In this document: positions 42,498 to 59,399 of the stretch, piece by piece
How positions within the stretch are numbered: position 1 is the first letter of the stretch
How the letters are laid out: every line of letters begins with the position of its first letter
NCBI GenBank assembly: GCA_021815305.1
Contig: JAKAHC010000002.1
Location: 224,112 to 288,111 of the forward strand
Direction: 5' to 3'
Source: Deltaproteobacteria bacterium
Lineage (GTDB): Bacteria; Desulfobacterota; Deferrimicrobia; Deferrimicrobiales; Deferrimicrobiaceae
Length of the DNA: 64,000 nt
The notes under the pieces: model-generated
Database searches by the model: none
What the model was told of the DNA's origin: nothing
Seen by the model: only the letters and a program-made list of their open reading frames with translations
Translations under genes and position numbers: made by a program

Positions 42498-44351
42498 TCA
42501 GGCGGGGGCTCCTGCCTGCGCCGGCGATCCCCCGGGGCCCTCCGGAAGGACCGCCTCCTGGATGATCCGTTGGATCTCCGCCCCGTCGACCACTTCCTTC
42601 TCCAGGAGCCGTTTCGCCACGTTGTGCAGGATCTCGATGTGCGTGGAAAGCAGGGTCTTCGCCCGCTCGTAGCCGCCGTTGACGAATCCCCGCACTTCCT
42701 GGTCGATGTCCCGGGCGGTCGCCTCGCTGTAGTCCTGATGGCGCGTGAAATCGCGGCCCAGGAAAATCGCCTCCTGCTTCTGGCCGAACGTCACCGGCCC
42801 CAGCTTCTCGCTCATTCCCCACTCGCAGACCATCTTCCGCGCAAGGGCCGTGGCGCGCTCCAGGTCGTTCCCCGCACCGGTGGTGAGCTCGCCGCGCACC
42901 AATTCCTCGGCGACGCGTCCCCCCATCAGGATGGTGATGTTGTTGTTCAGGTACTCCTTCGAGTAGGTGTGCCGCTCGTCGATCGGCAGCTGCTGCGTGA
43001 TTCCGAGGGCCATCCCGCGCGGGATGATGCTCACCTTGTGGATCGGATCGGCGCCGGGGGTGAGCGTGGCGACGATCGCGTGGCCCGCCTCGTGGTAGGC
43101 GGTGGATCGCTTCTCCTCGTCGCTGATGATCATCGAGCGCCGCTCGCGCCCCATCATCACCTTGTCCTTTGCGCTCTCGAAGCAGTCCATCGTGACCTTG
43201 GCCAGGTTGGTGCTCGCGGCGTGCAGCGCCGCCTCGTTGGCGAGGTTGGCGAGGTCGGCGCCCGTGAACCCCGGGGTCCCCTTCGCCAGCACCTCGAGGT
43301 TGACGTCTTCGGCCAGCGGGATCTTCCGCACGTGAACGCCCAGGATCTGCTCCCTGCCCTTTACGTCGGGCTTGGGGACCACCACCTGCCGGTCGAACCG
43401 CCCGGGTCGCATCAGCGCCGGATCGAGCACGTCGGGCCGGTTCGTCGCGGCGATGAGGATGAGCCCCTCGGTCGACTCGAAGCCGTCCATCTCGACGAGG
43501 AGCTGGTTCAACGTCTGCTCCCGCTCGTCGTGGCCGCCTCCGAGTCCCGCCCCGCGGTGCCGACCGACCGCGTCGATCTCGTCGATGAAGATGATGCAGG
43601 GAGCGGATTTCTTCCCCTGGATGAAGAGGTCGCGCACCCGCGCCGCGCCGACACCCACGAACATCTCCACGAAGTCGGACCCGCTGATGGAGAAGAACGG
43701 GACCCCGGCTTCCCCGGCGATGGCCCGCGCCAGGAGCGTTTTCCCCGTGCCGGGGGAACCGACGAGCAGCACCCCCTTCGGGATGCGGCCCCCAAGCTTG
43801 GTGAACTTCTTGGGGTCCTTGAGGAACGCGATGATTTCCTGCAGCTCCTCCTTGGCCTCCTCGATGCCGGCCACGTCGGCGAAGGTCACCTTGTTCGTCG
43901 ATTCGGTCAAAAGCTTCGCCCGGCTTTTCCCGAACGACATCGCCTTCCCGCCGCCCGCCTGCATCTGGCGCATGAAGAAAACCCACACGCCGATCAGCAG
44001 CAGCATCGGCAGCCAGGAGACCAGCAGCGACATGTACCACGGGTTGTCGTCGATGGGTTTGGCCGTGATCTGCACGTTCTTTTCGCGCAGGTTCTTCACG
44101 AGCTCGGGATCGTCCGGGGCATACGTGTGGAACGACTTCTTCTCCTTGCCGGCGTTGTCCACGTACTTCCCGGTGATCTCCTGCCCCTTGATGGTGACCT
44201 CTTTCACCTTGCCGGAGTCCACCGCCTGGAGGAAGGAGGAGAAAGAGATCTCCTCGTGCTCGACCTTGTGGGTCTTGAACGTGTTGAAGAGGAAGACCAT
44301 CGCAAGCGCGATGAGCATCCAGAGGGCGAGATTGCGATAGAACTGGTTCAA
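42498..44351 (-). CDS. ftsH: ATP-dependent zinc metalloprotease FtsH.
   Basis: Two TM helices are followed by an AAA module ([13 protein letters not shown], the second region of homology) and the HEAGHAI zinc site. A TTG start at 44351 has AGGAGA 9 nt upstream. Confidence 0.9.
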
Positions 44352-44476
44352 GTTTCAGAGTCTCCTGTGGATGGGGATATCCCGTCGATCGGGACTCTCC
44401 TCCCATTCTTGTTATTTGATGCGCCGCGGCTAACTTACGGATCCCTTTCCTATCTTAGCACACGGGGGCGCGGTGT

Positions 44477-45853
44477 CTATTTCTCCGAACGGTTCTCCGG
44501 AACGAGCTTCCGGCGCCCGGGGAGAAGCATCCGCAGCAGGACGGCCTTGCGCGTTGCCGGGGTGACGGGGGCGTGTGCGGACCGGACCACGCCCGGGATC
44601 CAGAGGATCCTGCCGTCCGCATCGCAAACCACCGGCCGTCCCCGGCGCTCATCCCGCGGAACCTTTCTGTCGATGAGGATCTCCTTGACCCGCTTTTCGG
44701 TTTCCATCCCGAACGGACGAACCCGGTCCCCCGCCCGGAGGGGCCGGAGGATCACCGGGAACGCGACGGCCGATGCGTCGAACAGTTCCGCGTTTCCCTT
44801 CGCCGCGAGGCGCTTGGCCCGGGAGATCGTCGCATTCATCACCGCCTTGACGTGCAGGACCTGCGCCGTCGGCGCGCTCGCGGACACAGTGTGAACGAAC
44901 CGGGCCTCTCCGTACCGGTTGGCCAGCTCCCACCCCTTCCCGAGTTTCCGCCGTGCGGACGGCCCGCCGCCGCCGATCGTCTTGTCCATCCCGCGCAGCA
45001 ACCGCTCGTTCGGCGCCAGTCCGAGGCGATCGAAACAGATCCGCTGGAGGATCTTGACGCGCAGGATCGCCGGGATCCCGCGGAAGCCCTTCCGCGGGAT
45101 CCGCAGGATCGGTGCGGAGCTCGCCTCCTTCTTGACGTTCCTGCGGATCCATGCCCGGGCTTCCGCGTCCAGGTAATCGTCCAGTTCGCGGAACCGTTCC
45201 CCCAACGCAAAGATCCGCCGCTTCACGGATTTACCGTACCGTTTCACCAGCAGAGGCACCAGGATGTGGCGGATCCAGTTCCGCTCCGCGCGGGTGTCCC
45301 GGTTGGAGCGATCGATGCGATACGGTATCTTGTGTTTCTTTAAGTATTCTACTATATCCTCTTGCCATACATCGAAAATCGGACGAACGATACCGCCTTC
45401 AGAGACTCTCGGAATCCCTTTGAGCCCGGCGATTCCCGCCCCCTCCAGGAACCGCATCAGGATCGTCTCCACCTGATCGTCGGCGTGGTGCGCCACGGCG
45501 AGTTCCTTCGCACCGACGCGACGGCAGAGATCCGTCAGCCAGGCGTACCGAATCTTGCGGGCATCGTTCTCGAAACCGGACGGGAAACTCCGCGATGCCC
45601 CCATGGTTCGCGTCAAGAGACCGGCTTTCCCCAAATTCAGGATTTCCGTTTCCAATCGAAATTTTTTCGCGGTTTCTTCAACCAGCACCTGGTCCTTGTC
45701 CGATTCCTTGCCACGAAATCCGTAGTTTACGTGTCCCAGGACGATTCGACGTGTTTCCTCCCGCAGGAGACGGTCCAGCAGGAACATGGAATCCGGTCCG
45801 CCCGATACCGCGGCGATCAACGCCGGACCCTGCGGTTTGGTGCTCTTGCCCAT
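44477..45853 (-). CDS. tilS: tRNA(Ile)-lysidine synthetase.
   Basis: The PP-loop AAVSGGPDS and a HHADDQVETILMR motif are present. The start is the ATG at 45853. Confidence 0.8.
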   Translation of the reverse strand: MGKSTKPQGPALIAAVSGGPDSMFLLDRLLREETRRIVLGHVNYGFRGKESDKDQVLVEETAKKFRLETEILNLGKAGLLTRTMGASRSFPSGFENDARKIRYAWLTDLCRRVGAKELAVAHHADDQVETILMRFLEGAGIAGLKGIPRVSEGGIVRPIFDVWQEDIVEYLKKHKIPYRIDRSNRDTRAERNWIRHILVPLLVKRYGKSVKRRIFALGERFRELDDYLDAEARAWIRRNVKKEASSAPILRIPRKGFRGIPAILRVKILQRICFDRLGLAPNERLLRGMDKTIGGGGPSARRKLGKGWELANRYGEARFVHTVSASAPTAQVLHVKAVMNATISRAKRLAAKGNAELFDASAVAFPVILRPLRAGDRVRPFGMETEKRVKEILIDRKVPRDERRGRPVVCDADGRILWIPGVVRSAHAPVTPATRKAVLLRMLLPGRRKLVPENRSEK

Positions 45854-45911
45854 GATCCGTAATTGTGGAGGGTTTTTCCCGGCGCCGCAAGACCGCGGGC
45901 CGCTTGCGGAT

Positions 45912-46982
45912 CTACTTCTTGAGGATCTTGCCCTGTGTCGGAGGAGTCGGTCCCTCATTCAAAACACGCCAGTACAGTGCGGCGGACATCGGGGATGTGC
46001 CCCCCGAGTCCAGGACCGATCGCACCGCAAAATACACCTTTTCGTTTTTGGACATGCCATAGGTCACGGGATTGAAGTCGATAAAATTCCCGGAGAGGGA
46101 GGATACCATGACGGAAACCGACCCGGCAGGAAACGCCGGGTCGGTGCTCCAGTAGATGTTGTACCGAACGGTACGGCCCGCTTCGAGGGGAGTTCCATCG
46201 GAGTAGGTCGTTATGCCATCCCAGGATAATTCCCATATCTCCGTGGCGGGAGCGGATGGCGCGGCGGGCGAGGCGGACGAGATCGGTCCGGTGATGCCGA
46301 TATTCGCAGGCACCGCCGGAATCCGTGCCGGCACGTCGACAACGTTCACGCTCTTGGTCGCCGTCTTTGTGGTCCCGCCGCTGGTGTAGCCGGCCGTCAC
46401 CGTCACGCTCTGGGTCGCCGTCACCTGCGCCGCCGTCAGCACCCCGCTCGAACTGATCGTCGCGTAACCGGTCGACACGCTCCAGGTCGGGGACACCGAG
46501 GTGGTCGTGTTGTCGCTCCAGGTTGCCGTCGCCGTGTAGGTGGAGGTCGACCCCTCGTTCACGGAAGAGGCGCCGGCGATCGACAGGCCGCTCAAAGTCG
46601 GGGCTGGAGGAGTCACTACCGGTACGACCCACGCGTACGCGGGGGAAAGCGCCGATACCTCGCCCGTGCTCAGCGCGGCGCTCGCCGTGAAGTAGGCGGT
46701 CGCTCCGCGTGTCATTCCCTGCACGTCCGGGTCGAAGGTCGTTGAAGTGGCGGTCAGCCCCGTGGCGATGGGATGGAGGGACGTCAGGCTTGCGCTTGCT
46801 GACCAGTACACCGAGTACGTGACGGTGATTCCCCCGCCGATCGTCGTGCCATCCGTGTAGGTCGTGACCGGGTCCCAGGAAACGGTCCGGGTTTCCGCCG
46901 ATGCGTTTTCACGGAGCGCAAGGAGGAGACCGAGGGTCAAAAAAACCAAGGACGCCTTCCGAAAGCCCCTCGCCCTCGACAT
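45912..46982 (-). CDS. Secreted Ser/Thr-rich protein with fibronectin-III-like modules at both ends.
   Basis: A signal peptide is followed by a W-D-P..Y.DGT...Y.VYW module near the N-terminus and another near the C-terminus. The centre is S/T-rich. The ATG abuts the upstream lipoprotein stop (TAAATG). Confidence 0.55.
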   Translation of the reverse strand: MSRARGFRKASLVFLTLGLLLALRENASAETRTVSWDPVTTYTDGTTIGGGITVTYSVYWSASASLTSLHPIATGLTATSTTFDPDVQGMTRGATAYFTASAALSTGEVSALSPAYAWVVPVVTPPAPTLSGLSIAGASSVNEGSTSTYTATATWSDNTTTSVSPTWSVSTGYATISSSGVLTAAQVTATQSVTVTAGYTSGGTTKTATKSVNVVDVPARIPAVPANIGITGPISSASPAAPSAPATEIWELSWDGITTYSDGTPLEAGRTVRYNIYWSTDPAFPAGSVSVMVSSLSGNFIDFNPVTYGMSKNEKVYFAVRSVLDSGGTSPMSAALYWRVLNEGPTPPTQGKILKK

Positions 46983-47432
46983 TTAGCTGCGAGTCCAGAC
47001 GACCGGCGTCATGAAAGCCGATTTTTGTTTGTCGACCCCGACCGCTTTCAAGGAAACGTAGAGCTGGCTTCCCGAAGGAAGGTTCGGCAGGAGATTCAGG
47101 TTAAACTCCGTGACCAGCGATTTGACGATCGTTTGCCCGTCCTGCGAAGGAACGTCCGCCACGGAGGCCACCTCGGCAACCGGAAGATCGGTGTCGGCGA
47201 AATTCGGGTCCTGGCGGACGTAGATCTCGTAAAAATCCAGATCCTGGGCCGGATCCATGACGGTGTTGTCGTTATACGCGGCGGGAGGCGTCCATGTGAG
47301 GGCCGTAACGGGGCCTGCCGGAGGGGGCGGCGCAATCCCTTGGGAAGTGACTCCTCCACCCCCGCATCCGGTCAACAACCCGCCAAGTGCGATCCCCCCG
47401 ATCAGGCACCCCAGGTGATTCCGTCGAAACAT
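46983..47432 (-). CDS. FN3-like lipoprotein, a paralog of the 57971-58363 gene.
   Basis: The start was chosen at MFRRNHLGCLIGGIALGGLLTGC, where the ATG at 47432 has GGAGGGAA upstream. This gives a lipoprotein signal with lipobox LTGC. A LTWTPP..Y.DNT...DLDFYEIYV module follows. Confidence 0.6.
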   Translation of the reverse strand: MFRRNHLGCLIGGIALGGLLTGCGGGGVTSQGIAPPPPAGPVTALTWTPPAAYNDNTVMDPAQDLDFYEIYVRQDPNFADTDLPVAEVASVADVPSQDGQTIVKSLVTEFNLNLLPNLPSGSQLYVSLKAVGVDKQKSAFMTPVVWTRS

Positions 47433-47731
47433 CGCAATTCCCTCCACAGCCCGATACCTGTTCGCAATGGACTGTCATCCCCCGTTTCTCAAATTACGTG
47501 CCATCAGGGGTTCCGGGAATTGCGGAAAAACATCTTCTCAACATACTGATAAACATATGGATTCACCGTAAACACCGAAAGACAACAAACAATAAAAAAA
47601 CACATTCGCGTTTGTTCTTTCAGCATCGAAAGAAAAATTTCACAAATGATATTTTCAGGAGGGCAATCGAAGAGTCACAGAAACCCAATTCCCCGGATTC
47701 GCAGTGAAACCCATGATGTGGCCTCCTGCGA

Positions 47732-49906
47732 TCAGGAGGACTTCAGCTTCTCCAACGTTTTCTTTGCCTCCGCCGCCCCGGGAAATTTCGGGTCCATCGA
47801 CAGCGCGGCCTTGAGCTCCGCCGCCGCCTCCTTCTGTTTCCCCTTTTTCGCCAGCACCATTCCATAATGGTACCGGACGCTGGGGTTCCCCTTGGCCTTG
47901 CCCGCCGCTTCGGCGATCAGGGGGAGCGCCGAATCGTACAACTCCTTCCGGTAGAAAACCCATCCAAGGGTGTCCGCCACGTTGGGGTCTTCCGGCGCCG
48001 CTTCCCGGGCCGTCTGGGCGAATTTCAGCGCCTCGTCGAGGTTCCCGCCGCCGTCGGCAAGGTTCGCAGCCAGGTTGTTCGCGGCCAGGGGGTTTTTCGG
48101 GGAAAGCGAGAGCACCGCGCGGTATTCCTTGTTCGCATCGTCGATCCTTCCCATCGAATTGAGGACCATCCCGAGCAGCAAGTGCCCCCCGGTATTTTTC
48201 TCGTTCCGCTCGACCACCTTCCGCAGACGCTTCTCGGCTTCCGGAAATTTCTTTTGCGAGGCGTACAACACCCCCAGCCGATAGTACGGCGATGTGAAAT
48301 CCGGCGCGAGCTCGATCGCCTTCAGGAACGCCGCCTCGCCTTCGGCCGGCTTGCCGGTGGCGACGAGGAAACGTCCCGAGAGGTCCCAGAGCAGCGGGTT
48401 TTTCGGCTCGTTCGCCATCACGTCGTCGAGCACCCTCTTCGCCTTCGCCGCATCCTTCGCGGCGGCGAGCGCGAAGACGTATTCGTTGATCGCCGTGAGG
48501 TCCTTCGGGTTTTTCCCTACCGCCTGGCCGAAGAACCCAGCGGCCTCCGCCGGCTTTCCCTGCAGCTTCCGCGAAAACCCCATTTTCATGTAGCCTGCGG
48601 GGTTTTTCGGCATCTGCCGGATCATCGCCTGGTAGATCTGCTCCGCCTTCTTCCACTCCTTCCGCGCGAGGTACGAGTCTGCGAGAAGCGCCGCCGCCAT
48701 CGCGTTGGAGGGGTTGCGCCGCAACACCTCGATTGCCGCTTTTTCCGCCCCTTCCGGATCGTTGGCCTGAAGGGAAACCTGCCCGAGGATCATCTGGGCG
48801 CGAGCATTCGCCGGTTCGAGCCGGACCGCCTCCTTGATATCCTTTCTCCCCGCCTCGATCTGCCCCTGCTGGATTTCCGCCAAACCGTTGTAGAGGCGGG
48901 CGGGCGCCATGTTCGCATCCTGCCGGATCACTTCCCCGAAAAGGGCCATCGCATCATCGGGGCGCTTCTCCATCAGCGCGATGCGGCCTTTGAGGTATTT
49001 GCCGTCCAGGTCCTTGTCGTTCTCTTTCAGGATGGCGTCGACGATCGGTTTCGCCTCCGACACCTTCCCCGCCTCGAGCCTGATCTCCGCCAGCACCTTG
49101 CGCGCCTTCTGGGAGTTCATCTCCTTGATGACCGCGTTCAGTTCCTTTTCGCTTTCATCCATACGTCCCTGGAACAGGTAATGCTCCGCCAGGGCGATCC
49201 GGACGCCCTCCTTGTCCTTGGAAAGCCCGATCGCCTTGCGGTACTCCTTTTCCCCTTCGTCGGGTTCTCCCGAAACGAAGAAGAAGTTCCCGCGCGTAAC
49301 GCGCACGTCCGCGGAGTCCGGATCGGCGGCGAGCGCCTTGTCGTACCATTCCTGCGCACTTTTCCGGTCATGCTTCAGGAGGTAAAGGTTGCCGGCGGCG
49401 AGCAGCGTGCGTACACGCTTTGGGTCAAGCCCTGCGGCTTTTTTCAGCTTCGCGATCCCCTCATCCACCTTTCCCGAGCGTACCGCGAGGGCGGACTGCA
49501 AGATGTACCCTTGAGGATCCTGGGGACGGCTCTTCACCAGGTTGTCGGCGATCTGCACGGCCTCGTCTTTCTTCCCGGCGGCGACGTAGATCTCTCCCAG
49601 CTTGCCCAGGGCATCGAAGTTGCCCGGATCGAGTTCCACCGTCCTCTTCAGTTCCTGGAACGCCGTGCGGAGATCCTTCGACTCCATCGACGCCTTGGCG
49701 AGCTTCCAGTGCGCCTGGGCGTTGTTTGGAACCGCCTTGACGGCGTTCCTGTATTCGATCACCGCTTCACGGAACTTCGCCTGCTTTGCGTATTCGTCAC
49801 CGAGTTTGACATACTTGGCCAACATGGCCTCGGGCGATCTCGAACAGGTGGAGAGGAAAGCAGACAATACCAGGAGATAGACGATCCGAACGCCCGGATA
49901 CCGCAT
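47732..49906 (-). CDS. TPR-repeat lipoprotein, similar to the PEP-CTERM system protein PrsT.
   Basis: This 724-aa ORF has a signal peptide with lipobox LSTC followed by more than 15 TPR repeats. Confidence 0.75.
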   Translation of the reverse strand: MRYPGVRIVYLLVLSAFLSTCSRSPEAMLAKYVKLGDEYAKQAKFREAVIEYRNAVKAVPNNAQAHWKLAKASMESKDLRTAFQELKRTVELDPGNFDALGKLGEIYVAAGKKDEAVQIADNLVKSRPQDPQGYILQSALAVRSGKVDEGIAKLKKAAGLDPKRVRTLLAAGNLYLLKHDRKSAQEWYDKALAADPDSADVRVTRGNFFFVSGEPDEGEKEYRKAIGLSKDKEGVRIALAEHYLFQGRMDESEKELNAVIKEMNSQKARKVLAEIRLEAGKVSEAKPIVDAILKENDKDLDGKYLKGRIALMEKRPDDAMALFGEVIRQDANMAPARLYNGLAEIQQGQIEAGRKDIKEAVRLEPANARAQMILGQVSLQANDPEGAEKAAIEVLRRNPSNAMAAALLADSYLARKEWKKAEQIYQAMIRQMPKNPAGYMKMGFSRKLQGKPAEAAGFFGQAVGKNPKDLTAINEYVFALAAAKDAAKAKRVLDDVMANEPKNPLLWDLSGRFLVATGKPAEGEAAFLKAIELAPDFTSPYYRLGVLYASQKKFPEAEKRLRKVVERNEKNTGGHLLLGMVLNSMGRIDDANKEYRAVLSLSPKNPLAANNLAANLADGGGNLDEALKFAQTAREAAPEDPNVADTLGWVFYRKELYDSALPLIAEAAGKAKGNPSVRYHYGMVLAKKGKQKEAAAELKAALSMDPKFPGAAEAKKTLEKLKSS

Positions 49907-50150
49907 GCGCGCCTCCGAAGAAATCGTCCGATATTTTCGACAACGATAGGGTTTCTCGCGGGAAAGATCAAGGAGAAGAAAAATAAAAGGAGTAAAAAAA
50001 AAGAAAAGACACAGGGGTCAAAAAATCCCCAATTGCGTAATATAAAAGGTAAAAGTAGAAGTATTTTACACAGCGGCTCCGACCGTAAGTGGAAATGAGC
50101 CATGAACCATCTGTTTTTGAAAGGATATTTATCGTAACGAGAGGACCGGT

Positions 50151-50167
50151 CCGGGCGCGAAAATTGC
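50151..50167 (+). promoter_or_regulatory. Sigma-54 (-24/-12) promoter candidate for the GGDEF/HD-GYP gene.
   Basis: The sequence reads gGGCgCG-AAAA-TTGC with GG and GC exactly 12 nt apart. It lies about 45 nt upstream of the GTG start. Confidence 0.5.
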
Positions 50168-50213
50168 TTTTATCGTTGCAATATTTGTTCATTTGCGCAC
50201 AAAGGGGAGTTCC

Positions 50214-52376
50214 GTGGCGCCGATCGACCTGAAAAACCTGCCCCGTTGCACCATCGACTTCCCGCTCGAGATCTCCCCGGAAGAGATCGGCTCGCTCGCG
50301 GCCCCCGTCAACACCCTCCTGAAAAGCAGCTACCTCCTCGGGACGTCGTTCGACACCGAGGTCACCTTCCAATCCCTGTTCGACATTGCCGAGGAGATCG
50401 CCGGGGTCGAGGCGTGCGGGCTGCTGCTTGCCGCCGAGAATGCCCAGGATCCGTGGGAACTGAAGGTCAGCCGCCGGATCAACCCCGCCCCCGCGCCGGA
50501 TCATTTGCAGAACCTGGTCGCCCCCGCCATGATCGCGGCCCAATTCGGCAAGGGGATTTCCATGGACCCCCAGTGGGGGCCGTGGTCCGCGCCGGTTTGC
50601 GAAGCGTGGTCCTCCAGGTCCCTGGTCGCATTTCCGTTACAGAGGGACCGGGAAGTGGCGGGGGCGATCGTTTTCGGCAAGCAGGACTCGCACCCCTTCA
50701 CCAACGTGCAGGTAAAATTGCTCTGGTCCCTGTCGCTGCAGGCGGAAAACCACCTTCAGCGCAGCGAGTCGGTGAAGGCCCTTTCCCTGTATTCCTTTCT
50801 TGACCCGTTGACCCATCTCTACAACCGCAGATATTTCGACAACCAGATCGAAAAGGAAATTCTCCGGTCGCGCCGCACCGGAGAGCCGTTCAGCCTCCTC
50901 ATGCTCGACCTCGACGGTTTCAAGGCTTACAACGACCGGTTTCTCCACACCGCGGGCGACATCGCCCTGCAGGAATTCGCCATTATCCTGGGGGGCAGCG
51001 TGCGCGAGGTCGACACGGTAGCGCGGCTGGGCGGCGACGAATTCATCGTCATTCTACTGAAGGGGGACGAGGAAGGGGCCCAGGCCCTGGCCCACCGGGT
51101 CGTCCATCGGTTCCAGCGCCATCTCCTGCCCGGGGACGGCGACAGCCGCACCGAGCGGTTGTCGGTGAGCATCGGAGTGGCGTCGTTCCCGTCGGACTCC
51201 TTCGACAAGACCGACCTGTTGAACAAGGCGGACCGCGCCCTCTCCATCGCCAAATCCCGGGGCGGCGGCCAGGTGTGCACCGTCATCGACACCTTCGATG
51301 CGGCTCCGAAGAAAAGCCCGACGGCCGATGTCCCGATCCGGAAGATCTACGACGCGAGCCGGTCAGTGGTGGACATGGACAAGTTCCTCGAGATCCTCCT
51401 TTTCACCGGGATGCAGGGGCTCTCCGCCGGCCGCGGCTCCATCGTCGTGAAAGGCGCCGAGGGCGATTTCTCCCTTTGCGCCGCAATCGGTTTTTCCCGG
51501 CACGAGGAGCACCTTGCCGCGGGGCCTTTCCGACCCGGCCCGATCACCGCATGGGTGGTGGAACACCAGGTCCCGCTGGTCGTATCCCGGTCGGAGGATT
51601 CGCCGTTTTGCCCGACACCGAAAAAAAACGGCTACCAGACCGATTCGTTCCTGTCGATCCCATTGACGCACAAAGGCCGCGCGCTGGGGGCGCTCCACCT
51701 GACCAACCGCAAGGACCAGAGGCCGTTCACCCGGGAAGACCTCAAGACCTTTACCCCGATCTCTTCCGAAGTTGCCGCGATCCTTGCCCAGGGGATGGAC
51801 TTTCGGGAGAACGTCCGCGCCTTCTCCCTCTCCATCCTGTCCTCGTTGTCCGACGCGCTCGAACTTCGCTTCCCCTTCCTCTCGGGGCACTCGGGCCGCG
51901 TGCGGGACCTTTCCTTGCGGGTCGGGGAACGGATAGGCATGGAAAAAGAGGACCTCACCGCACTTCGCTTTGCGGCCGACCTGCACGACGTCGGGATCGT
52001 CGGCATCCCCGCGAACATCCTTTCAAAGAAGCACCGACTGAACGACCGCGAGATGGAGATGGTCCGGAAACATCCGTTCCTGGGATCGAAGATGCTGGAA
52101 GGGGTCCCGGGAATGGAAGCGACCCGCCGGGCGATCCTCGAGCACCACGAGAAATTCGACGGTTCGGGATACCCGTACGGTCTTCGCGGGGAGGACATTT
52201 CCCTTCCCGCCCGCATCCTCTCCGTGGCCGAGTTCTACGACGCCATCATCACGGATCGGCCGTACCGCGGCAGCCTGCAGCCCCAGGAAGGGTTGCAGTT
52301 GGTTCGCTCCGGCGCGAACACCCTCTTCGACCCCGAGGTGGCGCGGCTGTTCGCGGAATATGCATCCCCCCACTGA
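50214..52376 (+). CDS. GAF-GGDEF-GAF-HD-GYP multidomain c-di-GMP signalling protein (putative diguanylate cyclase/phosphodiesterase).
   Basis: The GGDEF domain carries an intact RLGGDEF motif. The HD-GYP domain (HDVG...HHEKFDGSGYP) is flanked by GAF-like regions. A GTG start at 50214 has AAGGGGAG upstream. The TTG at 50193 is the alternative. Confidence 0.8.
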   Translation: MAPIDLKNLPRCTIDFPLEISPEEIGSLAAPVNTLLKSSYLLGTSFDTEVTFQSLFDIAEEIAGVEACGLLLAAENAQDPWELKVSRRINPAPAPDHLQNLVAPAMIAAQFGKGISMDPQWGPWSAPVCEAWSSRSLVAFPLQRDREVAGAIVFGKQDSHPFTNVQVKLLWSLSLQAENHLQRSESVKALSLYSFLDPLTHLYNRRYFDNQIEKEILRSRRTGEPFSLLMLDLDGFKAYNDRFLHTAGDIALQEFAIILGGSVREVDTVARLGGDEFIVILLKGDEEGAQALAHRVVHRFQRHLLPGDGDSRTERLSVSIGVASFPSDSFDKTDLLNKADRALSIAKSRGGGQVCTVIDTFDAAPKKSPTADVPIRKIYDASRSVVDMDKFLEILLFTGMQGLSAGRGSIVVKGAEGDFSLCAAIGFSRHEEHLAAGPFRPGPITAWVVEHQVPLVVSRSEDSPFCPTPKKNGYQTDSFLSIPLTHKGRALGALHLTNRKDQRPFTREDLKTFTPISSEVAAILAQGMDFRENVRAFSLSILSSLSDALELRFPFLSGHSGRVRDLSLRVGERIGMEKEDLTALRFAADLHDVGIVGIPANILSKKHRLNDREMEMVRKHPFLGSKMLEGVPGMEATRRAILEHHEKFDGSGYPYGLRGEDISLPARILSVAEFYDAIITDRPYRGSLQPQEGLQLVRSGANTLFDPEVARLFAEYASPH

Positions 52377-52526
52377 TCACCGCCCCAGGAAAATAATTAC
52401 CCTTCCGGAGCCCCTCCCCCCAACAGATAGGCAATTCATTTCCCACCCATTGAAAACCAAAGATTCGGACAATATATTTTAATTTACAATTCAAATACTT
52501 ACAAATTTATACCCATAGGCCGCATT

Positions 52527-52542
52527 TGGCATGCCCGTTGCG
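52527..52542 (+). promoter_or_regulatory. Sigma-54 promoter candidate for PEP-CTERM protein 1.
   Basis: The sequence reads TGGCAT-GCCCG-TTGCG, a perfect GG-N10-GC spacing. It lies about 55 nt upstream of the ATG at 52597. Confidence 0.6.
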
Positions 52543-52596
52543 TTAATACCACTTGTAACAAAGGGAACATATCCGGGAGAAGAAGAGGAAGCCGCA

Positions 52597-53292
52597 ATGA
52601 CAAAAAGAGTACGAATCGGGATGGTGGTGTTCGGGGTTGTCCTTTCCCTCCTGTTCGGAGTGCCTTCGTTTGCCGCCAGTGTCAATATCGGCGATACCGT
52701 CCAATTTTCCTTCGCCCCCAATCATGCTTCGGGATTCCCGGGGGGAGCTTTCCTTGCGAAGGACCTCACCTCGGGAACTTCATGGCTTTCCTTTTGCCTC
52801 GAACATAACGAATACATCACGTTGGGTGCGAATTACCGAATCGACACGATCGGTCCCGATGCGGTCGGCGGGGGCGTCGGAAACTCAGGGACCCCAGGGG
52901 TCCTTGGCAAGACAGGAAGTTCCGACCCGATTTCCTCCCAGACCGCCTATCTGTATTATCGGTATGCAACCGGCGGGATTCCCGGAGTTTCGGGAGCGGG
53001 CACCGGAGCGCAGCAGCAGGCGCTTCAGAATGTGTTCTGGTACCTTGAAAACGAAATCTTCTCCCCTCCGGGGGGAGCATTGTTCCAGCAGTATCTGGCG
53101 ATTGCACAAACGGCGACCGAGGGGCAACACTACGACGTTTTCGCGGTGAATCCCAATACCCTGGCGGGAACACGGGCGCAGAGCCAGCTCGTGTACCTGC
53201 CGGTATCCGTGCCGGAAGCAGGGACTTTGTTGCTGTTCGGCAGCGGCCTGGTCGGCCTGGTCGGTTATCGACGAGTGCGCCGGATGCAATAA
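52597..53292 (+). CDS. PEP-CTERM sorting-domain protein (putative exosortase substrate).
   Basis: The N-terminus MTKRVRIGMVVFGVVLSLLFGVPSFAAS is a signal peptide. The C-terminus VPEAGTLLLFGSGLVGLVGYRRVRRMQ has the PEP motif, a TM helix and an Arg cluster. Confidence 0.8.
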   Translation: MTKRVRIGMVVFGVVLSLLFGVPSFAASVNIGDTVQFSFAPNHASGFPGGAFLAKDLTSGTSWLSFCLEHNEYITLGANYRIDTIGPDAVGGGVGNSGTPGVLGKTGSSDPISSQTAYLYYRYATGGIPGVSGAGTGAQQQALQNVFWYLENEIFSPPGGALFQQYLAIAQTATEGQHYDVFAVNPNTLAGTRAQSQLVYLPVSVPEAGTLLLFGSGLVGLVGYRRVRRMQ

Positions 53293-53424
53293 GTTTTCCC
53301 CGGATTTCATCCGGATTGGAAAGATTGGCCAAATGATTACCCACTCTCCGGAGCCTTCGAGGATGCTGTTTTATATTCACCTGGAAATTCAGTGAGTTAA
53401 ACACGCGTTACCAGCCGTTGTTGT

Positions 53425-53440
53425 TGGCACAAATACTGCG
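53425..53440 (+). promoter_or_regulatory. Sigma-54 promoter candidate for PEP-CTERM protein 2.
   Basis: The sequence reads TGGCAC-AAATA-CTGCG, about 57 nt upstream of the ATG at 53497. Confidence 0.55.
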
Positions 53441-53496
53441 TAATGTTCGGGTAACCGTTTTTGGACATACCCTGCAAGACGATCGGAGGATGTTGT

Positions 53497-54144
53497 ATGA
53501 GAAAGTTGACGCTTCTGGCGGCAGTCGGGTGCCTGATCCTTCTGTTCGCAACCGCGGGGCAGGCCGCTCTCTTCACGAACGGGAGCTTCGAGAACGGCAG
53601 CTACGACGCCGGTCTGAACAACTACAACACGCTCTTCAGCGGTTCCACCGCCGTCGACGGCTGGGTCGTCGGAGGAGGAGGAATCGACTGGATCAACGCC
53701 TATTGGACCCCGGCCGACGGCACCAAGAGCATCGATCTGGCGGGGAACAACCCTGGCAGCATCAGCCAGACGTTCGATACGACGGTCGGAACGCTTTACA
53801 CGGTCGAATTCGCCATGTCGGGAAATCCGGATGGGCTACCGATCCTCAAAGCGCTCATCGCCGACGCATTCAGCCCAACTCTGGCCGGCGCGACCATCGA
53901 ATATTTCAACACCACCGGCGTGACCCGGATCGGCGGCATGGATTGGTCTACAAGGTCGTTTCAATTCCTGGCGAATTCCCCCTCGACCACCTTGACGTTC
54001 GCCAGTTTCTCCAGCACCACCCCCTACGGCGCGGCGCTGGACAACGTGAAGGTGACGGCCGTCCCCGAGGCCGGTGCGATGATCCTGTTCGCTTCGGGCC
54101 TGGTCGGCCTGATCGGTTACCGGAGGACGCGCCGGATGCAGTAA
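53497..54144 (+). CDS. PEP-CTERM sorting-domain protein with a DUF642-like (FTNGSFE) domain.
   Basis: A signal peptide MRKLTLLAAVGCLILLFATAGQA is followed by FTNGSFENG...IDLAGN. The C-terminus VPEAGAMILFASGLVGLIGYRRTRRMQ is a PEP-CTERM tail. Confidence 0.8.
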   Translation: MRKLTLLAAVGCLILLFATAGQAALFTNGSFENGSYDAGLNNYNTLFSGSTAVDGWVVGGGGIDWINAYWTPADGTKSIDLAGNNPGSISQTFDTTVGTLYTVEFAMSGNPDGLPILKALIADAFSPTLAGATIEYFNTTGVTRIGGMDWSTRSFQFLANSPSTTLTFASFSSTTPYGAALDNVKVTAVPEAGAMILFASGLVGLIGYRRTRRMQ

Positions 54145-54169
54145 GGTTTTCGGGGCATTCACAGACGGG

Positions 54170-54200
54170 AAAGGGGCCCCTCGGGGCCCCTTTCCATTTC
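54170..54200. terminator. Bidirectional rho-independent terminator between the convergent PEP-CTERM gene and the response-regulator gene.
   Basis: The sequence reads AAAGGGGCCCC-TC-GGGGCCCCTTT, a perfect 11-bp stem, with A-run and T-run flanks. Confidence 0.6.
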
Positions 54201-54235
54201 CTTATAATTCACGGCAATCGGATTCCCGGTTCGGA

Positions 54236-55606
54236 TCACCCCTCCCGGAACGTCTTCCAATCGATGCGCAACACCTGGATCTTGTAGTTCAAAACACGAG
54301 GGGTGACCCCGAGCAGCTCCGCGGCGTCCTTCTGGACCCCCCGGGTTTTCCGGAGCGCCCGCTCGATGGCGCCCCTCTCCATCTCTTCGAGGTTCAAGGT
54401 CTCCAGGTACGGTTGCGATTCCCTTCCCGACTCGACGCTTTCGAGGATCAGGTCGGAGGGGGTGATCAGGGAGTTCTCGCAAAGGAGCACGGCACGTTCG
54501 ATCGCGTTCTGAAGCTCCCGTACGTTCCCGGGCCATTCGTACCTGCGCATCTTCAGGATCGTCTCCGGGGCGAACCCGTCCACCTTCTTCTTGAAGTCGG
54601 AGGCGTACCGGTTGAGGAAATGCCGCGCCAGCGGCAGGATGTCTTCGAGGCGCTCCCGGATCGGAGGAATGTGGAGCTGCACGACGTTCAGCCGGAAGTA
54701 CAGGTCCTGGCGGAACCGCCCTTCCTGCACTTCCTTGCGCAGGTCCTTGTTCGTCGCCGCGACCACGCGGACGTCCACCTTGACCGTCTTCCCGCTGCTG
54801 CCCAGCCGCTCGAACTCGTGCTCCTGCATCACCCGCAGCACCTTGGACTGCGTCGTGGGACTCATGTCCCCGATCTCGTCCAGGAAGATGGTCCCCTTGT
54901 CCGCCTGCTCGAACCGGCCTATGCGCATCCGGTCCGCGCCGGTGAAGGCGCCCCGCTCGTGGCCGAACAGTTCGCTCTCCAGGAGGTTCTCGTGGAGGGC
55001 AGCGCAGTTGACTTTCACCAGCGGCTGTTCCCGTCGCTGGCTGTGGAAGTGCACCAGCCCCGCCAGGACCTCTTTCCCGGTCCCCGTTTCCCCCGTGACC
55101 AGGACGGTGGCGGACGTCGGGGCGACCTTCCGGATCTTGGACAGCACCTCCTTCATCACCGGGTTTTCCGCGACGGGAAGCCCCTCCCCCATCTCGAGCC
55201 GGTACTGGACCTTCTTGAAAAAGTCGAGTTCCCCCCGCATCTTCTGGACGCGCAGCGCGGTCCCCACGCGATGTTTGAGGTGCTCGACGTCGAAGGGCTT
55301 CTGGATGTAGTCGAAGGCGCCCAGGCGCAGCGCCTGGAGCGCCGACTCCAGCGTCGCGTACGCGGTCATCAGGATGACCTCGGTCTCGGAGTTGACCTCC
55401 TTGGCCTTCCGCAAGACCTCCACCCCGCTCACGTCCCCCAGTTTGATGTCGGTCACCACGACATGGGCCGCTTCGGATTCCAGGGCCTGGAGCGCATCCG
55501 CCCCATTGGCCGCCACTGTCACGACGTAGCCCGCATCTTCCAGGGCGCCGGCAATCCCTACGCGCAACGCCTCGTTGTCTTCGGCCAGCAGAATCCTGTC
55601 AGACAT
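54236..55606 (-). CDS. Sigma-54-dependent response regulator (NtrC family; PrsR-like).
   Basis: A REC domain (D at LLAEDNE...DIKL) precedes an AAA+ sigma-54 activation domain (GETGTGKE, GAFTGA, ESELFGHE) and a Fis-type HTH. Confidence 0.85.
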   Translation of the reverse strand: MSDRILLAEDNEALRVGIAGALEDAGYVVTVAANGADALQALESEAAHVVVTDIKLGDVSGVEVLRKAKEVNSETEVILMTAYATLESALQALRLGAFDYIQKPFDVEHLKHRVGTALRVQKMRGELDFFKKVQYRLEMGEGLPVAENPVMKEVLSKIRKVAPTSATVLVTGETGTGKEVLAGLVHFHSQRREQPLVKVNCAALHENLLESELFGHERGAFTGADRMRIGRFEQADKGTIFLDEIGDMSPTTQSKVLRVMQEHEFERLGSSGKTVKVDVRVVAATNKDLRKEVQEGRFRQDLYFRLNVVQLHIPPIRERLEDILPLARHFLNRYASDFKKKVDGFAPETILKMRRYEWPGNVRELQNAIERAVLLCENSLITPSDLILESVESGRESQPYLETLNLEEMERGAIERALRKTRGVQKDAAELLGVTPRVLNYKIQVLRIDWKTFREG

Positions 55607-56696
55607 GGGCCTGCCTCAGGGGGATCTTGACGGTGAACTCGGTCCCCTTCCCCGGCTCGGAGAGGATGTCGAGCACCCCTTTATGGGCATAGACGATTTT
55701 CTGCGCCAGCGGGAGGCCGATCCCGGTGCCCCCCTTTTTTGTCGTGAAAAAGGGAACGAAGATCTTGTCCCGGATCTCTTCGGGAATCCCGGCCCCGTCG
55801 TCCTTGACGTTCACCGTGAGGAAATCCTCCCTCTCTCCGGAGGCATCGGAAAGCATCGGCTCCCTCGATTCGGGGACCAGGTCCCAGTACCCATGGGTCA
55901 CCCGGGCGGATATCGAAACGTTCCCGCTCCCCTCGCACGCCTGGGCCGCGTTGGTGACGATGTTGGCCAGCGCCTGCTCCATGAGCCCCTCGTCCATCTC
56001 GGCTTCCACGCCGGCGCTCCCCTGAGGAAAGAACGTCACCTTGACCCCATCGAACAGTTTTCCCGCCTGCGACGCGATGCGCTCCATCAGCGGCGCCACG
56101 GGGACCGCCCGGACCCCGAGCTCCGCGGGACGGACGAAGTTCAGGCACTCCCGGATGATGTACTCCACCTTCACGATCTCCCGCTCCATGTGGGAGATCG
56201 AGGAGAGGATCTTCGGGTCGCCCTGGTACCGGGACCGCAACAGCCCGCAATGGACGCCGATGCTGGCGATCGGGTTGCGGATCTCGTGCGCGAGCCCCGC
56301 CGCCATCTGCCCCAGCAGCCGAAGGCGCTCGTTCAGGTCGCGGTTCTCCTCGGCCACCTCGACGTGGGTTAGATCCTTGAAGAACGCGCAGATCCCGGTG
56401 CGCCGGTCGCCGTCTTTCAGTTCCGCGAGGGTGAATCCGATGGACCGATGCATCCCTTCCCTTCCCGGGAGAATCGCCTCCAGCCGCGTGGGCAGGTACC
56501 GCAGGTCCAACGCCTCGATCAGCAACCGGAAAAAGGCATTCTCGGCCGCTCGGGGGCGAAGGTTTTCACCGTTCTTCACGGCAAAACTTTCCAATATCTT
56601 CATCGCGATGTCGTTGAGGTATACGACCTGGCCCGCGGGATCGATCACCAGGATGCCCGCCCGGAAGCATTTCAGGATGTCGTTTTCAAGCCCCAA
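55599..56696 (-). CDS. PAS-domain sensor histidine kinase (NtrB/AtoS-like), partner of the regulator downstream.
   Basis: A PAS domain precedes the HisKA H-box AHEIRNP and the HATPase N, G1 and G2 boxes (NAAQA, DDGAGI, GGTGIGL). The TTG start overlaps the RR start region by 8 nt. Confidence 0.8.
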
Positions 56697-56949
56697 ATTC
56701 TAAGGACGCTCCCCTCAAGACGATGGACGCACAACAGCATACCAACAAAAAGGGGCCGTCTCCAGCGGGAGACGATCCGCAGCGGCATTGGGGCGCATCC
56801 CGCACGGCCCCGGGCGGAACGGGATCCCCTCGCACGACGGCACCTTCGAATCTCGCAGATCCGTCCGGCTACAGAGTTCCTTGACGGATCGGATCGACTT
56901 TGTTAGTGATCTTCTAGGCTTCCCAATCCTCGAAGTCCCCGGAGCACCC

Positions 56950-57942
56950 ATGCCCCTGCACCGCTGGCTCGCCCTGGATACGGACCGGACCCTCGAAACC
57001 TTGGCCCGGAAGATGAAGGAGACCGTTCTTCGAACGCTGTCCCGGAAAGGGGCCGTGGTCGCCATCTCCGGCGGGATCGACAGTTCCGTATGTGCCGCTC
57101 TCACAGCAGCCGCCCTTGGCCGGGACCGCGTCTTTGGTCTCCTGCTCCCGGAGAAGGACTCCTCTCCCAGGAGCCAGGAACTCGGCGAATCGGTGTGCCG
57201 GATCCTGGGAATTCCGTACGAGATAAAGGACATCGCGGACACGCTCGAGGCGATCGGCTGCTACCGCCGGCGCGACGCGGCCATCCGGAATGTCCTCCCG
57301 CAGTATGCGGCGGGTTGGAAGAGCAAGATCGTCATCTCGCGGCACGCAAGTGAGACGGCCCGCTGGAACTTCTTCCGGCTCATCGTCGAGTCCCCCGACG
57401 GGCAGCGGTCCGAGACGCGACTCCCCTTGAACGAGTACCTGGAGATCGTGGCCGCCACGAACTTCAAACAAAGGATTCGGAAGACGCTGGAGTACTTTCA
57501 CGCCGATCGATTGAATTACGCCGCCGTCGGGACACCGAACCGGCTGGAATACGACCAGGGATTCTTCGTCAGGAACGGCGACGGTGCCGCCGACGTCAAA
57601 CCAATCGCGCACCTCTACAAGAGCCAGGTCTACGAACTGGCGGCGACGCTGGGACTCCCGGACGCAGTCGTCGGTGCAACGCCCACGACCGACACCTACA
57701 GCCTGGAACAGGGACAGGACGAGTTCTACTTCTCGCTCCCCTACAACAAGATGGACCTCGTGCTGTTCGGGCTTAACAACGCGAAGTCGCCCGAAGAAAT
57801 CGCCGCGGAGACGGGCCTGACGGCCGAGCAGGTCCGGATGGCCTTCGAAGACATCCGCGGGAAGCGCAGGACGACCGCCCGGCTGCACTGGAAGCCGGTG
57901 CTTCTGGAGCCCGTCGCGGAGATCCGCGATCGCGAAGAGTAG
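56950..57942 (+). CDS. nadE: NH3-dependent NAD+ synthetase (PP-loop ATP pyrophosphatase).
   Basis: The PP-loop VVAISGGIDSS is present and the C-terminal half aligns with NadE (GT.N..E...GFF.K.GDG..D..P...L.K..V). The start was chosen at the ATG at 56950. Confidence 0.75.
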   Translation: MPLHRWLALDTDRTLETLARKMKETVLRTLSRKGAVVAISGGIDSSVCAALTAAALGRDRVFGLLLPEKDSSPRSQELGESVCRILGIPYEIKDIADTLEAIGCYRRRDAAIRNVLPQYAAGWKSKIVISRHASETARWNFFRLIVESPDGQRSETRLPLNEYLEIVAATNFKQRIRKTLEYFHADRLNYAAVGTPNRLEYDQGFFVRNGDGAADVKPIAHLYKSQVYELAATLGLPDAVVGATPTTDTYSLEQGQDEFYFSLPYNKMDLVLFGLNNAKSPEEIAAETGLTAEQVRMAFEDIRGKRRTTARLHWKPVLLEPVAEIRDREE

Positions 57943-57970
57943 CGGAGCTCGTTGGCCCGTCGCGAAGCGG

Positions 57971-58363
57971 TCAGAGCGAGAACGAAGCCGTCGGAGAGAA
58001 GTCGGACTTCGCGCCATCGTTGGTAACGGCGCGGATTGCCACGTAGTACGTTACGCCCGGGGACAGCTGGGGGGCCAGCAGCACGAGGTTGAAGGAGCGG
58101 TCTTCCGGCGCCACTGACGCCTCGGCGGAATCGGTCGGTCCGAAGGAAGGGTTCTCCTTCACATAAATCTCGAAACTCTGCAGGTCCGTGGCGGGATTGA
58201 GGGGGGTGCCGTTCGTATAGGACATGGGGGCTTCCCAGATCAACGTCTTGGCTGGAGTGGAGGCCGCGGGGACGGAATCACTGGAGCTGCTCCCTCCGCC
58301 GCACGCGGAAAGGAGTCCTCCAAGGATCGCGCACACAGCAAAGATCTTCTTCAGCCGACCCAC
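57971..58363 (-). CDS. FN3-like lipoprotein, a paralog of the 46983-47432 gene.
   Basis: A GTG at 58363, 9 nt after AGGAGGG, gives MGRLKKIFAVCAILGGLLSACGGG. This is a lipoprotein signal with lipobox LSAC. A LIWEAP.SYTNGT...DLQSFEIYV module follows. Confidence 0.55.
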   Translation of the reverse strand: MGRLKKIFAVCAILGGLLSACGGGSSSSDSVPAASTPAKTLIWEAPMSYTNGTPLNPATDLQSFEIYVKENPSFGPTDSAEASVAPEDRSFNLVLLAPQLSPGVTYYVAIRAVTNDGAKSDFSPTASFSL

Positions 58364-58390
58364 GTACACGTGCCCTCCTGACTGGAAATT

Positions 58391-58407
58391 GGCAAGGGCC
58401 GTGCCAA
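58391..58407 (-). promoter_or_regulatory. Sigma-54 promoter candidate for the 57971-58363 lipoprotein.
   Basis: The minus strand reads TTGGCAC-GGCCC-TTGCC, a consensus match with GG-N10-GC. It lies about 30 nt upstream of the GTG start. Confidence 0.55.
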
Positions 58408-58477
58408 TATCCTGAGCCATGAAGGTTCAATGGGTTATGCGTTTCGGAACGCGTCGGCAATTTCGGATTTGTAACCT

Positions 58478-59399
58478 CTATTTCAAAAGCGTATCCGTGA
58501 GGCTGGCCATGGCGACCTTCTCCGACAGGAGTTGGAGCAGGTACTGGCCGTATCCGTTCTTCCTCATCGGCGCCGCAAGAACCTCCACCTGCGCAGCGTC
58601 GATGAAGCCCATCCGGTAGACGACTTCCTCGACGCAGGCGACCTTCAGTCCCTGGCGCTTCTCGATCGTTTCTACGAAGGCGCTTGCTTCCAAAAGAGAA
58701 TCGTGCGTTCCTGTGTCCAGCCACGCGAACCCGCGCCCCAGGAGTTCCATGCGCAGCGCCCCTTGCGCCAGGTAGGCGTTGACGACGTCGGCGATCTCCA
58801 GTTCGCCCCGGGCCGAAGGTGAGGGGCTCGCTGCGATTTCCGCCGCTTGGCTGTCGCAGAAATACAGCCCGGGAACCGCGTAGCTGGATTTCGGACGCGC
58901 CGGCTTCTCCTCGATGTTCCGCACCGTACCGCGAAAATCGAATTCCACGACCCCGTACCGTTCCGAATCGCGCACCCAGTAACCGAAGATCGTGGCGCCG
59001 GTCTCCACAGCGGTCGCGCGCTGGAGGATCGACGCGAACCCGTGTCCGTAAAAGAGGGTGTCCCCGAGGATCAGGCAGACGGGGTTCTCTCCGGTAAACT
59101 CTCTTCCGATCAGGAATGCCTGCGCGATCCCTTCCGGCCGTGGCTGCGGCGCGTAGGCGATCCGGATACCCCACTGGGATCCGTCCCCCAGAAGATCCCG
59201 GAACATAGGAAGGTCGACCGATGTCGAGATGAGCAGAAGTTCGCGGATACCGGCGAGCATGAGCACGGACAGGGGGTAGTAGATCAGCGGCTTGTCGTAG
59301 ACGGGAAGGAGTTACTTGCTCACCGCCTTGGTGATGGGATACGGCGGGTCCCCGCTCCCCCGGCCAGGATGATCCTCTCTCGCCTCGGACTTCCCTCAT
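58478..59399 (-). pseudogene. rfbA: Glucose-1-phosphate thymidylyltransferase (RfbA/RmlA) disrupted by a 1-nt deletion and a CAA-to-TAA nonsense codon in the N-terminal nucleotide-binding motif.
   Basis: From the ATG at 59399 the frame reads MLTHEGSPRRERIILAGGAGTR, then shifts by -1 where Leu is expected, then reads [24 protein letters not shown]. The remaining about 260 aa (track ORF 58478-59266) are intact RmlA sequence. Confidence 0.6.

Follow-up and report, generated by a model that had tools for sequence, protein, structure and literature searches.

Genes A, B and C and their shared module

The window analysed here is a 64,000-nucleotide stretch of contig JAKAHC010000002.1 (GenBank assembly GCA_021815305.1) from an uncultured sediment organism, a Deltaproteobacteria bacterium of the family Deferrimicrobiaceae. 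It carries three genes, designated A, B and C, which encode two small lipoproteins (A and C) and a larger secreted protein (B) with a common FN3-like module (Table 1). The proteins A and C were found to be 38% identical over 126 amino acids (aa) (E=6e-19), in agreement with the original prediction, made from the DNA letters, that they are paralogous lipoproteins with lipoboxes LTGC and LSAC. B had been predicted to start directly after A and to carry the same module at both ends, and both points held. The stop codon of A abuts the start codon of B (TAA-ATG, as read in the sequence). The two end modules of B are 33% identical (E=5e-16), its C-terminal module matches C (BLASTP E=2e-5), and the profiles of the A and B families align with an hhalign probability of 94% (E=1.5e-7). 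A six-frame hidden Markov model and tblastn scan confined the module to A, B and C within the window.

A model of B obtained with AlphaFold2 (AF2) consisted of three beta-sandwich domains, with a predicted local distance difference test (pLDDT) score of 87.6. In Foldseek this model matched neogenin and contactin FN3 tandems, with E values as low as 5e-9, as well as LigA and the S-layer protein Sap. The modules form a seven-stranded beta-sandwich that superposes on solved FN3 domains, and the sequence module noticed in the original prediction is the FN3 signature itself. The centre of B, described there as rich in Thr and Ser, turned out to be a folded Big_2-type Ig-like domain and not a low-complexity linker.

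When A, B and C were scanned against Pfam and NCBIfam, no family scored above threshold. C alone gave sub-threshold matches, to fn3 (PF00041; 20.4 bits, E=5.9e-4, under the gathering threshold of 25) and to Ig_Rha78A_N, and for A and B there was no match to fn3 even at E<=10. All three were unmatched by the choice-of-anchor models of NCBIfam, and the curated NCBIfam/TIGRFAM accessory families of PEP-CTERM and exopolysaccharide (EPS) loci returned only noise (best E 5e-4, to a signal-peptide-like region). A multi-repeat orthologue of B passes Pfam Big_2 (PF02368). Sequence-profile searches of the PDB were non-significant throughout; the central domain of B aligned with an Ig domain from a phage capsid (E 0.019). 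Hence, a strong match to a characterised unrelated family, looked for in Pfam, NCBIfam and PDB profiles, was not found. It may be noted that residues 4-56 of A (~47265-47423, lipobox and CGGGG linker) aligned with the N-termini of MtrC/OmcA and AcfD/SslE at a non-significant E of 0.065-0.47. This resemblance to surface-exposed lipoproteins is a possible hint of surface exposure, or mere signal-peptide similarity.

The N-terminus of A reads MFRRNHLGCLIGGIALGGLLTGC-GGGG, with the lipobox L-T-G-C ending at Cys23. A ribosome-binding site (RBS), GGAGGG, lies 7 nt 5' of its ATG, and the same ATG aligns with Met1 of the orthologues. All 52 sequences of an alignment have the lipobox Cys, and for L19 and G22 conservation is 90% or more. 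The N-terminal signal of C ends LLSAC-GGGS. With a lipobox defined as the pattern [LVI][ASTVI][GAS]C at the end of an N-terminal signal peptide, both A (LTGC) and C (LSAC) classify as substrates of signal peptidase II, and their lipidation is predicted from sequence. The signal of B is a typical Sec signal, with a basic n-region, the hydrophobic core LVFLTLGLLLAL and cleavage after ...LALRENASA, before ETRT.

The start of C required attention. Its longest open reading frame (ORF) begins at ATG 58420, and the extra stretch (58364-58420, minus strand) would swallow a sigma-54 promoter element at 58392-58406; public gene calls give C in a longer form of 149 or 132 aa. Since an RBS (GGAGGG, 58373-58378) precedes GTG 58363 and the promoter element falls inside the longer frame, GTG 58363 is the likely start.

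As the original prediction had stated, none of the three proteins carries a PEP-CTERM tail (TIGR02595 / PF07589: PEP motif, hydrophobic helix, basic cluster). A and C terminate in the G strand of the FN3 domain. B terminates in ...NEGPTPPTQGKILKK, without a hydrophobic helix; the two true PEP-CTERM proteins encoded nearby end VPEAG...GLVGYRRxRRMQ. The tail of B ends every one-repeat orthologue, again with no hydrophobic helix. Its residues N342, P345 and P348 do not vary among 48 orthologues, and G344, G351 and I353 are kept in at least 90% of them. A PEP-CTERM-like sorting signal was considered for this tail and rejected, because the hydrophobic helix is missing.

Homologues and their genomic surroundings

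The original prediction had been staked on conservation of the module outside the source genome, and this was observed. Homologues numbered 136 for A and 211 for B, essentially all of them annotated as hypothetical. When 1.84 billion cluster representatives (clusters at 50% identity) were searched exhaustively with a profile, 267 proteins were recovered at E<=1e-3, 120 of them at E<=1e-10, and nearly all were 120-160 aa long. A word-indexed homologue search with C returned C only; its relatives came from the exhaustive profile search. The strict lipobox pattern was present in 95 of the 149 best-scoring representatives, and many others had a close variant followed by CGGGG. Family members closer to C than to A made up 85 of 147; C belongs to this larger subgroup, and A is a specialised subgroup tied to B. 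The named sources of the homologues are Candidatus Deferrimicrobium and metagenome-assembled genomes (MAGs) labelled 'Deltaproteobacteria'; the Candidatus Deferrimicrobium-type lineage corresponds to candidate phylum MBNT15 (PMC9386147). Ten distant family members, all on contigs shorter than 2 kb, lie outside the counts of genomic context given below.

For A-type genes the context was examined in 21 genome loci (loci of both samples are numbered with L). Wherever downstream DNA exists, B was found within a few tens of nucleotides 3' of A, so that the pair is kept in essentially every such locus. Most of these loci have a kinase and a sigma-54 regulator directly upstream, 28-30% and 38% identical, respectively, to the pair in the window. 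Examples with annotation have the order 1019-aa PAS kinase, 469-aa sigma-54 regulator, A, B, then an unrelated ABC transporter. Tandem A-like (and B-like) duplicates were seen in L022 (10001-12395) and L024 (8899-12396). A lone second A-like copy without B occurs in L020 (672-1175), beside an MFS transporter and in the same MAG as L006.

The lengths of B orthologues cluster at ~340, 430, 520 and 610 aa. By tblastn, about 7 near-identical tandem Big_2-like repeats were found in L012 (10338-13364), and the repeat is also amplified in L008, L011, L018 and others. This variation points to recent expansion and contraction of the repeat. Downstream of B, its signal peptide and N-terminal FN3 module recur as an additional, truncated copy in L011 (12454-12975), and also in L009, L012 and L018. 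The copy in L011 runs into an out-of-frame Arg/Pro-rich tail and may be a pseudogene remnant or a repeat mis-assembly.

One related contig, L032 (JGI Ga0673044_0001357), was compared with window positions 42498-58363. It keeps a C-like gene, the kinase, the regulator, the GGDEF-GAF-HD gene, RmlA, TilS and FtsH, whereas PrsT, A, B and the two PEP-CTERM genes are missing. The lineage of the window thus seems to have undergone an insertion or rearrangement of these genes.

The C-type metagenome sample comprised 33 loci, found with a 5-sequence alignment. The C-type gene stands directly after EpsH in seven of them (L044, L049, L052-L055, L059) and after RmlA in five (L046, L047, L057, L061, L062). 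On most contigs longer than 2 kb it lies beside Bac_transf, Poly_export, Wzx, Wzy, beta-helix or deacetylase genes. L030 and L031 hold C-type genes in EPS clusters with deacetylase, beta-helix, glycosyltransferase, Wzx, Wzy and Poly_export genes; an exosortase gene was neither called nor detected in the 15-20 kb around them. In L032 and L064 the C-type gene adjoins the same 365-aa kinase and sigma-54 regulator as in the window. C is thus plausible as a component of EPS/exosortase loci, and no description of its recurrent position behind EpsH was found in the literature searched.

Promoter elements and neighbouring genes

The window was scanned for the sigma-54 consensus TGGCAC-N5-TTGC with at most one mismatch. 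Six matches were observed against 2.2 expected, and four of the six immediately precede A, C and the two PEP-CTERM genes. The sigma-54-like elements claimed for both lipoprotein genes were therefore confirmed, C having a perfect match and A one mismatch. The element of A, in the form (C/T)GGCACG-N4-TTGA, is kept in 20 of the 21 genome loci at a distance of 57-80 nt upstream of the start codon, and no sigma-70-like promoter was found in the region upstream of A. Further upstream of the sigma-54 element of A, related loci have the conserved palindromes ATTACGTAAT and CCAAGTTGG. The window has, in the AT-rich spacer between prsT and A, an inverted repeat that aligns with a block conserved in related loci (TCTTTCCAAGTTGGTAGAAC) and may represent an activator-binding site.

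The two PEP-CTERM genes have in common the motif ATTACCC-N1-4-TCCGGAGCC, which occurs nowhere else in the window and of which none would be expected by chance. It stands 131 and 89 nt upstream of their respective sigma-54-like elements, an arrangement that resembles the motif-1/motif-2 layout described by Haft et al. 2006 (PMC1569441). By analogy with 'motif 1' of that work, it is a likely enhancer site for the adjacent sigma-54 regulator. The motif is missing upstream of A and C, and these two genes are therefore probably under another activator. When the sequences upstream of A, C and the two PEP-CTERM genes were searched for a common activator site, no k-mer occurred in as many as three of the four.

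On the minus strand the genes run in the order Wzz, Bac_transf, hexapeptide transferase, DUF362, AsnB, AMP-binding, EpsH exosortase, RmlA and C, and after C the 365-aa kinase, the sigma-54 response regulator, PrsT, A, B, TilS and FtsH. Plus-strand genes are interspersed: NadE after C, and the two PEP-CTERM genes with a GGDEF-GAF-HD gene between the regulator and PrsT. The kinase labelled prsK in the original prediction fails the PrsK model, the regulator scores under the PrsR cut-off and only PrsT passes (Table 1); hence the locus does not look like a canonical PrsK/PrsR/PrsT set.

Table 1. Positions of the genes, protein domains and DNA elements in the window
Feature	Position	Strand	Description
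Gene A	46983-47432	minus	149-aa lipoprotein: signal peptide, lipobox LTGC, Gly-rich tether CGGGG, one FN3-fold domain (residues ~41-149)
Gene B	45912-46982	minus	356-aa Sec-secreted protein: FN3-like / Big_2-like Ig / FN3-like, conserved C-terminal tail
Gene C	57971-58363	minus	130-aa lipoprotein paralogue: lipobox LSAC, CGGG tether, one FN3-like domain; start GTG 58363
B, N-terminal FN3-like module	46620-46895	minus	residues ~30-121; AF2 strands 32-119
B, central Big_2-type Ig-like domain	46329-46604	minus	residues ~127-218; ~1-7 copies in orthologues
B, C-terminal FN3-like module	45963-46250	minus	residues ~245-340; AF2 strands 247-339
B, conserved C-terminal tail	45915-45962	minus	N-x-G-P-x-P-P-x-G-x-I-x-K-K; no transmembrane segment; pLDDT 60-69
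Sigma-54-type -24/-12 element of A	47489-47503	minus	TGGCACGTAATTTGA; one mismatch; 57 nt upstream of the A start codon
Sigma-54 consensus of C	58392-58406	minus	TGGCACGGCCCTTGC; perfect match; upstream of C
Inverted repeat	47615-47634	minus	TTCTTTC-N6-GAAAGAA; prsT-A spacer
PEP-CTERM upstream motif, first	52396-52412	plus	ATTACCC-N1-4-TCCGGAGCC
Sigma-54-like element, first PEP-CTERM gene	52527-52541		131 nt from the motif
PEP-CTERM upstream motif, second	53336-53355	plus	ATTACCC-N1-4-TCCGGAGCC
Sigma-54-like element, second PEP-CTERM gene	53425-53439		89 nt from the motif
prsT	47732-49906	minus	TPR lipoprotein, immediately upstream of A; TIGR02917 325.3 bits vs cut-off 312.2, passes
Choice-of-anchor C neighbour gene	53497-54144		159.8 bits vs 120
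Sigma-54 regulator	54236-55606	minus	PrsR TIGR02915 394 vs 502.6, below cut-off
Kinase	55599-56696	minus	365 aa, soluble, AtoS-like; PrsK TIGR02916 68.7 vs 300, fails
rmlA	58478-59266	minus	between exosortase and C; TIGR01207 score 375
Exosortase (EpsH family)	59396-60280	minus	two genes upstream of C; TIGR02602 127.3 vs cut-off 105.55, passes

Proposed role and relation to known systems

A, B and C are genuine genes that look expressed, and they belong to a hitherto unannotated family of beta-sandwich proteins of the cell envelope, found in MBNT15/Deferrimicrobium-like bacteria. On the most economical reading the family has a structural, matrix-organising role, serving as a structural or adhesive accessory of the extracellular matrix and not as an exosortase substrate. 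For this explanation, taken as a whole, we see about an even chance of being right. A and C would be cleaved by signal peptidase II and lipidated at the Cys, leaving a single FN3-fold domain on a flexible Gly-rich tether. B would be exported by Sec as a rod of the form FN3 / Big_2(n) / FN3, both end modules being homologous to the lipoprotein domain. The lipid-tethered A may anchor or nucleate B at the membrane and so give an envelope-anchored fibre or spacer, the length of which would be set by the number of Big_2 repeats in B. An NtrC-type activator may switch on the A-B pair through sigma-54. C would be a membrane-tethered FN3 module and a partner of the Wzx/Wzy-type EPS and exosortase machinery; it may, for instance, keep polymer or matrix proteins attached to the cell surface. 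The weakest steps of this proposal are the physical interaction of A with B and the link to polysaccharide.

A bolder form of the proposal would make the small FN3 lipoproteins an unrecognised structural part of the Wzx/Wzy-type EPS and exosortase machines of sediment bacteria. Here the lipid-tethered FN3 domain would capture nascent polymer or exosortase-processed proteins at the outer membrane, and A-B would have evolved into a sigma-54-switched anchor-plus-fibre whose length is tuned by the Big_2 number. We regard this form as speculative and quite improbable.

Several observations weigh against a structural role in the matrix. In the relatives, A-B does not lie near EPS or exosortase genes, PrsT and EpsH being absent within 10 kb, so that the matrix link of the pair rests on the arrangement in the window and on its paralogy with C. 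A sigma-54 element was found upstream of C-type genes in only 3 of 36 loci elsewhere. The synteny of C-type and EPS genes comes from fairly close metagenome contigs (neighbour genes 47-90% identical, mostly 55-75%), and part of it could be inherited gene order and not functional coupling. The conserved tail of B is left without explanation. FN3 and Ig folds are, moreover, functionally promiscuous, and the fold therefore gives no function.

The finding that the unit conserved in relatives is kinase, sigma-54 regulator, A and B amid unrelated genes also fits a different explanation, in which A-B is a self-contained surface adhesin or fibre under sigma-54 and two-component control, unrelated to EPS. 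Its adjacency to prsT would then be an accident of rearrangement, and C a separately evolving paralogue. L032, which has the same backbone minus PrsT-A-B, suggests likewise that the pair was inserted or moved. A variable repeat number, as seen in B, is typical of surface proteins and adhesins built from repeated Ig-like domains. However, both C, the paralogue, and the bulk of the wider family go with EPS clusters, no secretion system or outer-membrane anchor that could serve B is recognisable nearby, and B is without known adhesin export signals. We hold this explanation to be rather unlikely.

In a further alternative, A, B and C would be dedicated accessories of the PEP-CTERM/exosortase system, for instance receptors or scaffolds for PEP-CTERM proteins that EpsH has cleaved. 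The window locus also holds EpsH, PrsT, two PEP-CTERM genes and the sigma-54 regulator, there are sigma-54-like elements at all four of A, C and the PEP-CTERM genes, and C-type genes follow EpsH directly in seven metagenome loci. Moreover, Haft et al. 2006 (PMC1569441) noted a few extra sigma-54 sites before non-PEP-CTERM genes in PEP-CTERM-positive genomes. Against this, A-B occurs in 20 or more related loci with its own two-component system and with no PrsT, EpsH or PEP-CTERM gene within 10 kb, and the C-type genes of L030 and L031 lie in EPS clusters with no exosortase detected in 15-20 kb. The PEP-CTERM upstream motif is missing at A and C, and none of the three proteins matches an NCBIfam PEP-CTERM-associated family. 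The original suggestion of accessory components of the PEP-CTERM locus thus stands as plausible for C, in view of its EPS/EpsH clusters, and is unsupported for A-B; as an explanation of all three genes it appears unlikely.

That A, B and C are chance ORFs in GC-rich DNA, or their module a compositional artefact, can be dismissed with near certainty: the region does have many long spurious ORFs on both strands, but hundreds of homologues at 50-65% identity keep the lipobox, length and gene order, and there are high-confidence AF2 folds, ribosome-binding sites and conserved promoters.

To our knowledge, the exosortase/PEP-CTERM system still lacks a defined mechanism and a complete parts list, and a lipoprotein that repeatedly stands right behind EpsH in EPS clusters is a cheap candidate to test as one of its parts. 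A family of at least 267 clusters (50% identity) has no Pfam or NCBIfam model and is therefore annotated as 'hypothetical protein' only; with such a model, MBNT15 and related sediment genomes would be better annotated. Enhancer-dependent control in an uncultured phylum could be studied on the A-B pair, a well-delimited regulon unit with a conserved sigma-54 promoter and palindromes upstream. In other respects A, B and C are ordinary envelope proteins of the beta-sandwich type, for which no unusual mechanism has emerged. Their folds and general kind (beta-sandwich envelope proteins, lipoproteins) are well known; the family itself is unnamed and without a model.

Small accessory lipoproteins are known from polysaccharide export machines, such as PelC with PelB, AlgK, and Wza/OPX. 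The likeness of the present genes to these would be by analogy and purely positional, a small lipoprotein gene in an EPS cluster beside a TPR lipoprotein (PrsT) or a short Poly_export gene; PDB searches, dominated by FN3 matches, brought up nothing similar in sequence or fold to PelC, AlgK or Wza.

With the PEP-CTERM/exosortase system and its PrsK-PrsR-PrsT genes (Haft et al. 2006, PMC1569441), A, B and C share the neighbourhood in the window and sigma-54-type promoters, and C-type genes adjoin EpsH in several loci. Unlike PEP-CTERM proteins, they have no C-terminal PEP motif, transmembrane helix or Arg cluster, and A and C have a predicted N-terminal lipid anchor instead. A-B is not syntenic with exosortase genes in relatives, and the kinase of the window fails the PrsK model. 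In Geobacter sulfurreducens an FN3-domain gene, GSU1945, is numbered beside GSU1943 and GSU1944, which are 'PEP motif-containing putative exosortase substrate' genes (PMC10599522).

Like the Big_2 surface proteins (Leptospira LigA/LigB, intimin/invasin, the S-layer proteins SbsC and Sap), the B orthologues have a tandem-amplified repeat. In contrast to them, B is short (one repeat here), has FN3-like caps at both ends, is without a recognised anchor, autotransporter, LysM or SLH domain, and is encoded behind a partner lipoprotein gene.

Bacterial extracellular FN3 domains (PF00041; C. thermocellum 3mpc, chitinase A1 1k85) share with the modules of A, B and C the seven-strand beta-sandwich, and the FN3 hallmarks are recognisable here as the strand B Trp (L-x-W-x-x-P), the strand C motif Y-E-I-Y-V and the strand F/FG loop Y-Y-V-x-[IV]-R-A-V-x-x-x-G-x-x-S. 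Whereas those domains are linker modules of enzymes, in the present family a Gly-rich tether holds the domain as a stand-alone lipoprotein, or the domain caps a short rod.

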